DNA of 64,000 bases. Origin: Myxococcota bacterium (GTDB lineage: Bacteria > Myxococcota_A > UBA9160 > UBA6930). The first letter of the stretch is position 1, and every line of letters starts with the position of its first letter. Location of the stretch: contig OZ245015.1 in assembly GCA_965223705.1 (NCBI GenBank), positions 4,128,001-4,192,000 on the forward strand, given 5' to 3'. This document shows, piece after piece, positions 1 to 56,870 of this stretch. The notes below the pieces were generated by a model. The model was given only the letters and a program-made list of their open reading frames with translations, was not told the origin of the DNA and searched no databases. The position numbers were made by a program, and so were the translations under genes.

Positions 1-357
1 GCGCTCCTGGACTTGGAGCCTCCGGGAGAACATCTCCACCAGACGGGGAATCTTCGATAGACCGACGACCTTCCCGTTCGGGATATAGGCCACGTGGGCG
101 CGGCCGAAAAACGGGAGCATGTGATGCTCGCAGAGGCTGTAGAACCCGATGTCCTTCACCAGCACCATCTCGTCGTAGGAGACTTCGAACAGCGCGTTGT
201 TGAGGATCGAAACCGGGTCCTGCCCGTAGCCACTCGTGAGGAAGCGCATCGACTTCGCGACCCGAGACGGCGTGCGCTGCAGCCCGTCTCGGTCGGGGTC
301 CTCTCCGAGCTCCGTCAAGACCTCCCGAACGTAACTTTCGATGGAATCGCTACTCAC
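1..357 (-). CDS. folE: GTP cyclohydrolase I (5' part; runs off window edge)
   Basis: Manual translation from GTG at 357: ...[19 protein letters not shown]...[56 protein letters not shown], with the canonical FolE CEHH and RLQVQER motifs. Not in the ORF track because it is truncated. Confidence 0.93.
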
Positions 358-423
358 GGGCCCTCCCGGCAAAGGTTCCGAGAGTGCAACGCCTAGGCGC
401 CCGATTCAAGCGCGGGACGCCGG

Positions 424-1026
424 TCAGTATTTGCGGAGGAGGCCGCGGACGACCCCGCGGATCGTCACTTCCGAAGCGTGGAGTTCGATGGGGCGCAGTG
501 CCCGATTGGCGGGCTCGAGGGTCACCTTGTTGCCGCGCTTGAAGAACTTCTTCAGCGTCGCCTCACTGTCGCGCACGAGGGCGACGACGGTTTGGCCGTT
601 TCTCGCTTGGCTCGTGCTCTCGACGACCACGAAATCGCCGCTCTGGATATGCTCCTCGATCATCGAATCGCCTCGCACCTCCAGGGCAAACGTCTCCGAG
701 GGTCGGTGCACCATTTCCCGCGGCACCGACAAGGTCTCCTGCACTTCGATCGCCTCGATCGGCGCGCCGGCGGCCACCAAGCCGAGCAGCGGGATTTCCA
801 TGGTGCTGTCTGCCGAGCGCTGAATCGGCTCGACAGAACGCGAGTGATTCCACGACTTGCGCAGATAGCCCTTCGCAACGAGGTGGTGGATGTGCTTGTG
901 TACGGTCGCGACGGATGACAGCCCGAAGTGTTCGCCGATCTCCTTGAGACTCGGCGAATACCCTCGGTCGGCTACAAAGTCACGGATGTAGTCGAAGATT
1001 TCGTGCTGTCGTCGTGTAAGCGCCAC
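424..1026 (-). CDS. lexA: SOS repressor LexA
   Basis: N-terminal wHTH (LTRRQ..GYSPSLKEIG), Ala-Gly cleavage site (VAAGAP), catalytic Ser (VRGDSM) and Lys (ATLKKF); GGAGGAG RBS. Confidence 0.97.
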   Translation of the reverse strand: MALTRRQHEIFDYIRDFVADRGYSPSLKEIGEHFGLSSVATVHKHIHHLVAKGYLRKSWNHSRSVEPIQRSADSTMEIPLLGLVAAGAPIEAIEVQETLSVPREMVHRPSETFALEVRGDSMIEEHIQSGDFVVVESTSQARNGQTVVALVRDSEATLKKFFKRGNKVTLEPANRALRPIELHASEVTIRGVVRGLLRKY

Positions 1027-1046
1027 AACTCCTCCGCCTGATCGGT

Positions 1047-1078
1047 CGGAACAGTGGCGAAACTACGACGAAAGTCAA
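1047..1078 (-). promoter_or_regulatory. lexA promoter with overlapping candidate LexA operator (11-bp-period repeats)
   Basis: Minus strand reads TTGACT-ttcgtcgtagtttcgc-CACTGT. Three hexamers CTTTCG/GTTTCG/GTTCCG at an 11-bp period overlap the -35/-10 region. Confidence 0.55.
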
Positions 1079-1104
1079 GGCCTACGCGAGGCCCGGTACA
1101 AGAA

Positions 1105-1317
1105 TCAGCCCATCTTCTCTCGGGCGCGATCGATATCCGCGTCCATGATCGTCTTGCGCTTGTCGGCGATCGCGGAGGCGTGTGCTTCGCGCGCGAGACG
1201 AGCGAGGTAGTCCTCGGTCGCGCTCACCGCACGTTCGATCGCCGACCCCGAAACACGCAGGCCGTCGCCGTGCTTCGAGACCAGTCGCTTTACTACAGCG
1301 TTGGGTATATCACCCAT
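1105..1317 (-). CDS. Histone-fold protein (single fold, archaeal HMf-like bacterial histone), 70 aa
   Basis: MGDIPNAVVKRL..LRVS..AIERAV..LAREA..KRKTIMDADIDRA matches the HMf pattern (MGELP..GRII..RVS..RKTIKAEDIELA), including the L1 RVS motif and the RKTIxxxD clamp; AGGAG RBS. Confidence 0.85.
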   Translation of the reverse strand: MGDIPNAVVKRLVSKHGDGLRVSGSAIERAVSATEDYLARLAREAHASAIADKRKTIMDADIDRAREKMG

Positions 1318-1356
1318 GGGTCACTCCTATGGAGACCGTCCGGTGGGGGCGAGCGG

Positions 1357-1385
1357 AATCTAGGAACGGGAAACCGCTCCGTCAA
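1357..1385 (-). promoter_or_regulatory. sigma70-type promoter of the histone gene
   Basis: TTGACG-N17-TAGATT on the minus strand (1385-1380 and 1362-1357); a GAGCGG-N17-CCGCTC inverted repeat (1351-1379) overlaps it. Confidence 0.65.
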
Positions 1386-1399
1386 CACGATCCCTGAGG

Positions 1400-2599
1400 C
1401 TAGGTCCCCCCGGCCGCTGCTTCCGCCGCACGGACCACCGCGGTGATCGCTACGCCGTGGCGGAGCGCCAAGCGCCTGCAGTCGTCGTACTCCGCGGACA
1501 CCGAGGCCGAACCATCCGGTTTTTGGGCGATTTTGACCCGCACCGCCCCGTACTCCGTCGAGACGCGTCGGGATTCCCGGGCGAGCACCCACCGATCGGA
1601 CTCGCCGTAGCGGACGCCCAAGGTTCCGGTCTCGAGAAACAGACGCTCGGCCACAGGCTGACGCCGATCCGGCGGGCACAGGATCCGCAGCGCAAAGCCC
1701 GGCCGGTTTTTCTTTCCGATCGTGTGGGTAAGGGAGACGTCCACGGCTCCCGCATCGAGCAGCCGCTCCAGTACGTAGTCGTAGTGCTCGGGCTGAAGGT
1801 CGTCGAGCTGCGTCTCGATCACGCCGATGCGATCGGATCGGGCGAAGGGCACCTGGCCGAGCACGGCGCGCAGGACGTTCGGCAGCGAGCCTTCCCGCTC
1901 GTTGCCCGCGCCGTAGCCGACGCGGTCGATCACCATCTCGGGGAGCTGCCGAAATTCGTCGACCAACACGCGAAGGAGCGTCGCCCCGGTCGGCGTGACC
2001 GTCTCCCAAGCGATGTCCGCCGGGGCCACCGGAATGCCGCGCAGCAGTTCGAGCGTGGCGGGTGCCGGAACCGGCAGCGTGCCGTGCGCGGTCTCGACCT
2101 GGCCGTGCCCGAGGCTCGGCGGCGTCGCTGTGATCCGCCGAATCCCGAGCGCGTGGGTCGCGAAGGCCGCGCCGACGATGTCGACCAACGCGTCGACGGC
2201 GCCGACTTCGTGAAAGTGGATGTCGTCCACCGAGACGCCGTGAATCTTCGCTTCGGCCCGAGCGAGCGCGAGGAACATCGCCAGCGCCCGCTCGCGAACG
2301 GGCTCTTCGAGCTTCGCGCCCTCGATGCGGTTGCCGATCTCTTCGAGTGTGCGCCGACCGACGGGCTTGCCGCCGCCGCCGACAGCGACGTAGCGAGCGG
2401 CGATCGCGCCACGCATCACCTTGCGGACCCGCAGCGAAAAGGGGACGCCCAACCCGTCGAGGCCCTCGACGAGCTCTTTGCGCGACAAGCCGAGGTCGAA
2501 AAGAGCGCCGAGAAACATATTGCCCGCGATGCCGGAAAAGGTGTCGAGGTGCAGGATCTGTTCGCCGCGAGCGGCGCCCTTCGTTTTCTTCCGACTCAT
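1400..2599 (-). CDS. larC: Nickel pincer cofactor biosynthesis protein LarC (Ni insertase)
   Basis: SGIAGNMFLGAL, IHFHEVGAVDA, HGTLPVPAPAT, VTPTGA, KKNRPG, ETGTLGVR and EYDDC motifs. Confidence 0.93.
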   Translation of the reverse strand: MSRKKTKGAARGEQILHLDTFSGIAGNMFLGALFDLGLSRKELVEGLDGLGVPFSLRVRKVMRGAIAARYVAVGGGGKPVGRRTLEEIGNRIEGAKLEEPVRERALAMFLALARAEAKIHGVSVDDIHFHEVGAVDALVDIVGAAFATHALGIRRITATPPSLGHGQVETAHGTLPVPAPATLELLRGIPVAPADIAWETVTPTGATLLRVLVDEFRQLPEMVIDRVGYGAGNEREGSLPNVLRAVLGQVPFARSDRIGVIETQLDDLQPEHYDYVLERLLDAGAVDVSLTHTIGKKNRPGFALRILCPPDRRQPVAERLFLETGTLGVRYGESDRWVLARESRRVSTEYGAVRVKIAQKPDGSASVSAEYDDCRRLALRHGVAITAVVRAAEAAAGGT

Positions 2600-2630
2600 G
2601 ACTCGCGGCCTACCCGGGTTGCAGCGGCCG

Positions 2631-3383
2631 TCATCGCTCGCGGTTGATCAAGGTAGCCACGACCGCGGCGCTGGTTCCATTGTCGATGTTCACGACGCTG
2701 ACGTTCGACGCACAGGAAGAAAGCATGCCCAGGAGCGCGGCCACGCCGCCGAACGATGCGCCGTAACCCGTGCTCGTCGGCACCGCGATCACCGGGCGGT
2801 CCACGAGCCCGGCCACAACGGAGGGCAGCGCGCCCTCCATACCCGCGACCACGATGAGCACGTGCGCAGCCCGCAATTGCGCGAGACGGTCGAGCAGGCG
2901 GTGGAGGCCCGCGACACCGACGTCCTCGACACATTCCACTTTGTTGCCGAGGCGGCGTGCGACAACGGCGGCCTCCGCTACGACCGGTGCATCGGCGCTC
3001 CCGGCGCTCACGACGAGCACGGTGCCGACCCCGGTGATGGGGACTTCGCCGGGCCCCCACCAAAGCGTGCGGCTCGCCGCGTCGTATTCCGCCCCCGGAA
3101 AGAGCGCGAGCGTATCCCGAGCCAGTTCGGCGTCGACGCGCGTCGCCAGCGCGGGCTGATTCGAATCGCGCAGCCCGCGTGCAACCGCGGCCAAGGTCTC
3201 CGGGGTTTTTCCGGCGCCGAAAATGATCTCGGGCAGGCCCTGTCGAACCGCGCGATGGGTATCGACGCGCGCGCCCGGAACGTCGCGGAACGGAAGCTCC
3301 GCCAACGCGACCATCGCGTTCTCGGGGGAAAGCGCACCCCTCTGGACGCGCTCGAGAAGTTCTAGCAACTGCTCTTTTTGCAC
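2631..3383 (-). CDS. larB: Nickel pincer cofactor biosynthesis protein LarB (PurE-like carboxylase/hydrolase)
   Basis: PEIIFGAGKT, DVGVAGLHRL, VAGMEGALPSVV, PVIAVPTSTGYGA, VVNIDNG. Confidence 0.94.
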   Translation of the reverse strand: MQKEQLLELLERVQRGALSPENAMVALAELPFRDVPGARVDTHRAVRQGLPEIIFGAGKTPETLAAVARGLRDSNQPALATRVDAELARDTLALFPGAEYDAASRTLWWGPGEVPITGVGTVLVVSAGSADAPVVAEAAVVARRLGNKVECVEDVGVAGLHRLLDRLAQLRAAHVLIVVAGMEGALPSVVAGLVDRPVIAVPTSTGYGASFGGVAALLGMLSSCASNVSVVNIDNGTSAAVVATLINRER

Positions 3384-3430
3384 CGACGGAACCCTATCAG
3401 AGGGCCACGGTGCGGCCCATGGTCCGGGGC

Positions 3431-3982
3431 CTACGGTTCTTCGGGGAAGAGCGTGACGGGAATGCGGTAGAGCCCTTCGCGGTCGCGCACGGCGGTTTCC
3501 ACGCGCATCACGCTGCCGGTGCCACGGCGAACGGCCGACACCGCTTCGAGGGCAATACTTCCGTCGCGCGGAACGAGCACCGGAACCGAGGGCCGGAGGT
3601 CTAGCGCCAAGAGCGTTCCGATGGCGCCGATCAAGTGCGAGGCGAGGATGTTCGCCACTTCCTGAAGCGCCGAAACGCGGAGCGCTTCGCGATGGTCGGG
3701 TCCGAGCAGCGTTTCGCCGAGGCGAGCGGCGGTACCTTCGGGAAAACGAATCGCAACGGTTCCGCGAACGGGCCCTTCGATCTCAAAGAACGCAGCAGCG
3801 CACGTGGGTTCCGGATCGCGCGCACCGACGGCGGAGAGAGCCAACACCTGCGGGACATCCATCCAGCACTGCTTTTCGAGAAGAACGGCGAGGGCATCCG
3901 CGGCGTGGCCCGCGCCGACGTTCACCATCTCACGAAGGCGATCGACCCGATCGGACAGAACGTGGCAAGACAGTTGCGTCAT
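3431..3982 (-). CDS. cheC: CheC-family CheY-P phosphatase (DifG-like)
   Basis: Two ExxN motifs (LREMVNVGAGHAADAL; SALQEVANIL); start overlaps the cheA stop. Confidence 0.85.
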   Translation of the reverse strand: MTQLSCHVLSDRVDRLREMVNVGAGHAADALAVLLEKQCWMDVPQVLALSAVGARDPEPTCAAAFFEIEGPVRGTVAIRFPEGTAARLGETLLGPDHREALRVSALQEVANILASHLIGAIGTLLALDLRPSVPVLVPRDGSIALEAVSAVRRGTGSVMRVETAVRDREGLYRIPVTLFPEEP

Positions 3983-23549: not shown

Positions 23550-23625
23550 GGCCCGGTAGCTCAGTTGGTAGAGCACCTGACTGAAAATCAGGGTGTCGGC
23601 AGTTCGATTCTGCCCTGGGCCACCA
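23550..23625 (+). tRNA. tRNA-Phe (GAA)
   Basis: 76 nt; acceptor GGCCCGG/CTGGGCC-A-CCA, D-arm TAGCTCAGTTGGTAGAGC, anticodon loop CTGAAAA, T-loop TTCGATT. Confidence 0.97.
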
Positions 23626-41630: not shown

Positions 41631-41649
41631 ACTTTCGTTCTAATTTCGC
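41631..41649 (+). promoter_or_regulatory. Second copy of the lexA-promoter motif (candidate SOS box)
   Basis: ACTTTCGTTCTAATTTCGC versus ACTTTCGTCGTAGTTTCGC at 1075-1057 (minus): 16/19 identical. Confidence 0.5.
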
Positions 41650-56711: not shown

Positions 56712-56870
56712 CGAGGCCCGGTCTTCTGGCTCCCGGTTCAGCCTCCCGCGATGCCTTCCCGGGTGTGGCGCAACTTGTCGCCTACCCAGTGGCTGTGTCT
56801 CGCGGTCGTCCCCGGTTACAGCGGCGGTCCCGCGCCGGTTTTTCACCGGCTTCCCGCGGCGCGCCCGAGC
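56712..56870 (-). promoter_or_regulatory. Cobalamin (B12) riboswitch
   Basis: Minus strand: GGGAA-gccGGTGAAAaaccggc..GCTGTAA..GCCACTG..GGGAAGG..GAGCCAGAAGACC (B12 box); TTGACA at 56944-56939 upstream. Confidence 0.9.

Follow-up and report, generated by a model that had tools for sequence, protein, structure and literature searches.

A tail-less full-length histone lacking the archaeal tetramer residues is common to most of an uncultured class of Myxococcota

Archaeal histones of the HMf type, such as HMfB of Methanothermus fervidus and HPhA of Pyrococcus horikoshii, combine a 28-residue α2 and a three-turn α3 with a sprocket arginine, an RKT motif and an R-D clamp, and four of their residues (L46, H49, D59 and L62) are named as required for hypernucleosomes in PMC6136690. 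Nucleosomal histones are placed only in archaea by the published surveys (PMC10627809, PMC11390915, PMC12701072), and a short α2 has been called ‘diagnostic’ of bacterial singlet histones (PMC10627809). HBb, or Bd0055 (PDB 8CMP, 8FVX), is a bacterial singlet with an RKT motif, no tetramer histidine, an α2 shorter by four residues, a one-turn α3, an SK motif and no sprocket arginine, and it is reported to wrap DNA when residues of the L46/H49/D59/L62 set are restored (PMC10627809). Face-to-face histones (HTkC, 9F2C; HLp, 9QT0), which have been reported in Myxococcota, share the histone fold, with shortened α2 and α3 helices and an R48/N52 toroid signature. Bacterial full-length folds are not wholly new, as IHF and RdgC histones have been described, with tails and operons. 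IHF histones, according to the text of Schwab et al. (2024), are predicted dimers with a sprocket arginine, RxTxxxxD and a two-helix C-terminal dimerising tail. An IHF-like gene accompanies theirs in the same operon, and they have no α1 DNA-binding residues; Myxococcota are not among the phyla that this text lists for them. Other histone literature was also drawn on (PMC11317129, PMC13260811, PMC11789641, PMC11894785).

The gene studied here lies in a 64,000-nucleotide stretch of Myxococcota DNA, the whole of which is referred to as the window (Table 1). The open reading frame, ribosome-binding site and promoter of the initial annotation proved to be real, and the promoter is the sole promoter-like site within positions 1-3600 (0.2 ± 0.4 in shuffled sequence). 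Its description as the gene’s own near-consensus promoter is upheld by conservation, as 35/70 homologous loci have the same pattern no more than 100 bp ahead of the gene (shuffles: mean 0.19, maximum 3), and a Shine-Dalgarno-like word precedes the homologous histone genes in 56/70 loci. The strong expression that had been read from these signals found no support, the codon score of the gene standing at the 61st percentile in what is a weak test (the ribosomal genes used as reference are spread between -0.03 and 0.06). The net charge of the histone is only about +2. Elsewhere the window holds a cobalamin riboswitch (56719-56856, minus strand) and a tRNA-Phe gene (23550-23625, plus strand).

Table 1. 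Features at and around the histone gene (window coordinates).
Feature	Coordinates	Strand	Evidence or remark
folE (GTP cyclohydrolase I), gene cut by the window edge	1..372	-	PF01227
lexA, neighbour outside the histone unit	424..1026	-	TIGR00498, 199 bits (cut-off 111)
lexA -35 (TTGACT), overlapped by the candidate LexA operator TTCG-N7-TTCG	1058..1078	-	conservation
Full-length singlet histone gene, 70 aa (P0001), pI 9.3	1105..1317	-	ATG start
Ribosome-binding site AGGAG, 6 nt 5' of the histone ATG	1324..1328	-	sequence
Sigma-70-type promoter of the histone gene, TTGACG-N17-TAGATT	1357..1385	-	promoter pattern search
larC, ancestral upstream neighbour	1400..2599	-	upstream in 65/70 loci
larB, upstream of larC	2631..3383	-	NF033503, 265 bits

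The protein is a genuine histone with the full helix lengths of the archaeal type. The profile search that had been proposed as a check matched both Pfam models above their cut-offs (Histone, 45.9 bits; CBFD_NFYB_HMF, 32.3 bits), whereas the NCBIfam archaea_histone model gave 36.8 bits, below its 50-bit cut-off. Archaeal-type proteins were matched with a profile probability of 99.6, and the HBb profile with only 88 (E 3.6e-7); identity to HPhA was 35%, and alignment to H3 was gapless from L1 through α3. The AlphaFold monomer model, likewise proposed as a check, was a confident histone fold (pLDDT 95.4, from an 82-row alignment that included archaeal-type rows) with three helices at residues 6-15, 24-51 and 59-69, two loops and the R-D clamp; α2 thus has 28 residues and α3 has 11, where about 28 and about 10 are expected of HMf-type histones. 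A first model, built from 58 close rows, had α2 and α3 fused in one long helix (24-69; pTM 0.53) and was set aside as a shallow-alignment artefact. The accepted model superposed on HPhA (PDB 1KU5) with a Z of 9.6 and an rmsd of 1.1 Å over 66 residues, a match that was tied with H3 and other full-length folds, and Foldseek returned no match to it at E ≤ 0.001, the top rows being H3/H4 with a TM of about 0.9. Across the class, L1 and RKT are 33 residues apart in 68/68 sequences (all of 69-74 aa), whereas the HBb-type (18) and face-to-face (12) sequences compared, from the same class, have a distance of 29, and RKT is followed by 17-21 residues rather than the 9-12 of the latter two types. The L1-to-RKT distance shows that this is not an α3 histone, a type whose five groups all have an α3 of 3-4 residues and an α2 shorter by 4-5. 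The closeness to archaeal HMf-type histones that was first noticed by eye is therefore confirmed in helix lengths and in structure.

The residues by which HMf-type histones hold DNA are present, as had been noted: R10, R19 and RKT correspond to R11, R21 and R54-K55-T56, and D61 completes the clamp with R54. The sprocket R21 was found in 180/180 distinct homologues and the α1 KR pair (K10/R11) in 178, while R54, K55, T56 and D61 were present in 68/68 class sequences. The dimer-dimer interface is another matter. Using an offset of +2 to HMfB, set by the anchors R52, T54 and D59 (PMC6136690, PMC10627809), L46, H49, D59 and L62 become S48, A51, D61 and R64, so that only the aspartate is retained, and in the gapless H3 alignment A51 pairs with the histidine within ‘AIHAKR’ of H3. 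The initial assignment of these positions, and the loss of the four-helix-bundle residues that it implied, are both sound: position 51 was never histidine in the 180 homologues (A, R, K, D, E, G, S, T or Q), position 64 was leucine in one, and position 48 was serine in 149. Within the class, positions 51 and 64 swap small, basic and acidic residues, and this free variation of charge fits the absence of a higher oligomer and lends no support to the alternative oligomerisation mode that had been inferred. A49, M58, D59, A65 and R66 are nearly invariant in the class, and glycine stands at L1 positions 17 and 19 in 169 and 160 of the 180 homologues; the region of the stacking loop (HMf G16) reads G17-x-G19, with a one-residue insertion relative to HPhA that leaves the register ambiguous. 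The histidine is present in only 13 of the 27 archaeal-type relatives scored, so its absence is common and is not by itself proof against a tetramer. The toroid signature of face-to-face histones is also missing, with S48/D52 in its place (R in 0/180 and N in 12/180), and, unlike IHF histones, the protein is tail-less and keeps K10/R11, the IHF genes lying elsewhere in the genome.

The gene was found in 126 of the 201 genomes of the class, which we take to be UBA9160, and in 125/139 outside two families, f5 (0/59) and f8 (0/2), in which no full-length gene was detected; genus g4 also gave 0/2, in genomes 87% and 91% complete. The proposal of a chromatin protein of this lineage thus holds in so far as the gene, with its conserved promoter, is lineage-wide. 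It is single-copy in all carriers but one, G081, a genome 98% complete and 4% contaminated in which two copies (contigs C121 and C31) may reflect a binning artefact. Homologue records were labelled Myxococcota or Deltaproteobacteria. In the remaining classes of the phylum, 243 genomes gave a single match, an IHF-histone-like protein whose gene directly precedes an IHF-like gene (L246:443-1050, genome G336). Full-length relatives beyond the class, in differing gene contexts, came from Vicinamibacterales (L092-L096 and L128, the last between genes for argininosuccinate synthase and RNase H) and from single records titled Verrucomicrobia, Planctomycetota and Brocadiia; the L097, L161 and L162 set includes two Planctomycetota records and the Verrucomicrobia-titled one, where the histone gene lies after one resembling gyrase A. 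Such relatives are scattered over Acidobacteriota, Planctomycetota and Verrucomicrobia-labelled genomes.

In a 40-row tree, 22 sequences of this family were split from 18 archaeal-type matches by a branch with 98/95 support. This tree was built on 74 columns from groups picked by similarity, with long rows, P0215 and P0256 omitted; only three of the archaeal-type rows had an archaeal name in their cluster, and P0147, on the bacterial side, is labelled archaeon. The phylogeny that had been suggested gives a separate branch, and we claim no donor or direction from it. In a quick tree of 86 rows, which was distrusted, a long branch carrying HBb-type rows fell within the class. The gene is vertically inherited at one ancestral locus, and its presence at that locus across both orders of the class rules out contamination or recent archaeal transfer. 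Contigs of two DNA runs, which may be of the source sample, span the histone-lexA junction.

As the initial annotation had remarked, the histone gene lies 78 bp before the GTG of lexA on the same strand (gap 1027-1104) with no obvious terminator, the region holding three terminator-like sites where 2.6 were expected and the spacer folding with a z of -0.82. This spacer is not empty, as TTGAC-T-TTCG-N7-TTCG within it combines lexA’s own conserved promoter with a candidate LexA operator. The TTCG-N7-TTCG pattern alone occurs at chance level in the window (8 sites, 7.2 expected), so the claim rests on its conservation: it was found upstream of 34/38 lexA genes, where it overlaps the -35, and of 0/98 histone genes (0.14 and 0.2 in shuffles), with box scores of 24.9 for lexA, 26.6 for an error-prone polymerase gene and -6.9 for the histone gene. 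The candidate operator also precedes that polymerase gene (source genome G000, contig C1, upstream of 3908916), not recA; another TTCG-N7-TTCG site (41634-41648, plus strand) lies upstream of a 122-aa open reading frame in the window. Our literature search found no paper on a TTCG-type LexA SOS box in Deltaproteobacteria.

The wider gene order does not bind the histone to lexA. Among 51 genomes with both genes on one contig, drawn from the 89 for which both positions were among the matches listed (28 lexA matches were not), all had the two genes co-oriented, at a median of 3.7 kb and with 45 at 2-7 kb, and lexA was directly adjacent (<300 bp) in only three. In all five long loci that were read, larB-larC-(hydrolase)-histone is separated from lexA and folE by a groEL block in convergent orientation. 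Downstream of the histone, 42/70 loci have a convergent response-regulator gene (in L163:4409-5764 it encodes a protein of about 450 aa with one receiver domain, co-oriented with groEL). As groEL is about 130 kb away in the source genome and the regulator gene was not found there, the adjacency came about through loss of the intervening block. A scan of the related loci with a broad alignment gave no usable pattern. The conserved histone-lexA-folE adjacency that had been looked for is thus absent, and the histone lies next to lexA through a local chance of gene arrangement. An SOS function of the histone, with transcription jointly with lexA, is very improbable, even though the two genes share a strand, a short gap with terminators not above chance, and co-orientation within 7 kb in 48/51 genomes; lexA has its own promoter and box, and the linkage of lexA to groEL was kept in 20/20 loci without the histone. 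Read-through from histone to lexA is possible in this genus.

Profile PF00808 found one gene in the source genome, and the notion of a sole histone was discarded because this search missed two further histone folds, one of the face-to-face type and one of the ZZ zinc-finger type. The former, with a basic N-terminal tail (contig C1, 505634-505843, plus strand; L202), is present in 188/201 class genomes regardless of the full-length gene, including 57 of the 59 f5 genomes, so that a replacement of one by the other was also rejected. Its own tetramer signature is complete (R at -6 and N at -2 of RKT); it has a ribosomal-protein-like codon score at the 99.7th percentile (again a weak test), and may be the main chromatin or wrapping protein of the class. 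The ZZ histone (contig C1, start 822383, minus strand; L212) is widespread in the class, and in genus g17 of family f2 it has two tandem HBb-like domains (L226).

Family f5 had appeared to be without a histone, which was wrong: a stand-alone HBb-type singlet of 62-65 aa replaces the full-length histone in 56/59 f5 and 2/2 f8 genomes (E ≤ 2.1e-20). The 98 genomes outside these families with an HBb-like match all had it within the ZZ gene or a contig-broken half of it (four cases), and the 20 such regions that were read, that of the source genome included, were all ZZ fusions; when the whole ZZ protein was used as the query, 7/7 control genomes still showed the singlet separately. No genome in the class survey holds both the full-length histone and a stand-alone HBb-type singlet, a mutual exclusion that is a new observation here, and genus g4, represented by two incomplete genomes, has neither. 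In the f5/f8 loci larC lies near lexA in 7/20, none with a histone there, and at one such empty site (L083) the hydrolase and regulator genes are about 100 bp apart. Since the gene is retained at the locus in the class's other order, the most economical interpretation is that f5 and f8 lost it, and as the LexA tree places the two families apart with moderate support (SH-aLRT 88-93 at the relevant forks), there were two HBb swaps at most.

The HU/IHF family has exactly two members in 48/52 class genomes, and in the three genomes typed these were IHF alpha and IHF beta, with no HU detected; in the source genome, too, no HU was detected and IHF alpha and beta lie at 2087436 and 2552918 of contig C1. 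Genomes of other classes carry at least three HU/IHF-family genes in 26/34 cases, and the same query gave two in 5/5 class genomes. A general tie between HU loss and the full-length histone was rejected, as carriers outside the class have three HU/IHF-family genes.

We propose, with a probability of roughly 0.6, that the full-length histone is a homodimer that bends DNA non-specifically as a general nucleoid protein, in an HBb- or HU-like role and without nucleosome-like stacking. Each dimer would engage about 30 bp, by way of two L1-L2 sites plus the α1-α1 site, as HMf dimers do, and with no tetramer interface it would act as an isolated DNA bender. It would fill the role that HBb would hold in f5 and f8, where the gene was lost, and would do so in cells in which IHF but no HU was detected, beside a face-to-face histone that is perhaps the main wrapper. 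This reading is supported by the invariant DNA contacts, the missing bundle residues and the exclusion with HBb. Against it, that exclusion rests on two events at most, a genus, g4, has neither singlet and so may do without the role, the net charge is low, and codon usage is average where that of the face-to-face histone is extreme (the weak test above); furthermore, relatives outside the class live with HU-like proteins, as HBb too coexists with HU, and a full α3 with near-invariant A65/R66 and M58/D59 would be needless for a purely HBb-like role.

The near-invariant residues, A49 included, are also what lends weight to the idea that the dimers assemble into tetramers or open hypernucleosome-like fibres, giving nucleosome-like chromatin, through a non-canonical interface, which would be built from the small S48, A49 and A51 and the conserved charges D52, D59 and R66. 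The helices α2 and α3 are long enough for wrapping, the L1 glycines are kept, and the histidine is missing from many archaeal-type relatives as well. Yet positions 51 and 64, where small, basic and acidic residues alternate within the class, do not resemble a conserved interface, L1 has one residue more than in HPhA, and archaeal histones without H49 did not form stable tetramers, as reported in PMC10627809; we consider such assembly unlikely, though far from negligible. The broader picture of a class with histone-based chromatin without HU, made of three histone types with the full-length one assembling through a non-archaeal interface, is doubtful to the same degree. The presence of three histone folds in one genome would also suit a partner or cap, the full-length histone forming heterodimers with the face-to-face or ZZ histone that limit or tune their assemblies, and heteromers of differing stacking ability have been proposed as a size control in archaea (PMC6136690). 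This is improbable, given that the face-to-face histone has its own tetramer residues and persists where the full-length gene is gone, that the two α2 helices are of unequal length, by four residues (L1-to-RKT distances of 33 and 29), and that the genes are unlinked. A low-abundance specialist, be it a local cofactor of transcription or replication or a stage-specific protein, would sit well with the codon usage, the low charge and the gap in g4, and is if anything slightly harder to credit, as the near-consensus promoter and strong ribosome-binding site are conserved across the class, there is no extra domain, and the protein excludes singlets of a type that is an abundant nucleoid protein in Bdellovibrio.

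The full-length histone is a catalogued yet undescribed variant of prokaryotic histones. Table S1 of Hocher 2023 (PMC10627809) includes a 70-aa member identical to the source protein at 64/70 positions, which stands there undescribed, together with a relative from Lentisphaerae. It also lists, for a UBA4427 genome, histones of the HBb, face-to-face and ZZ types, the full-length type being absent among the rows listed. No description of a tail-less full-length bacterial family was found in a search that most subscription papers fell outside, nor was any literature found on UBA9160 histones.

A tail-less singlet of archaeal dimensions is thus of long standing in a bacterial class and has been passed on vertically there, and its exchange for HBb in two families is a natural swap experiment. 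The swap opens two questions to experiment: whether the choice of bending or wrapping is set by helix length or by the tetramer residues, and whether histones take the place of HU. The protein, at 70 aa, is easy to express and assay. If assembly through a new interface were true, this would be the first bacterial lineage with a wrapping histone of archaeal length, in contradiction to the published confinement of nucleosomal histones to archaea and eukaryotes, and it would connect, as a living link, the full-length histones of bacteria with the shortened ones.
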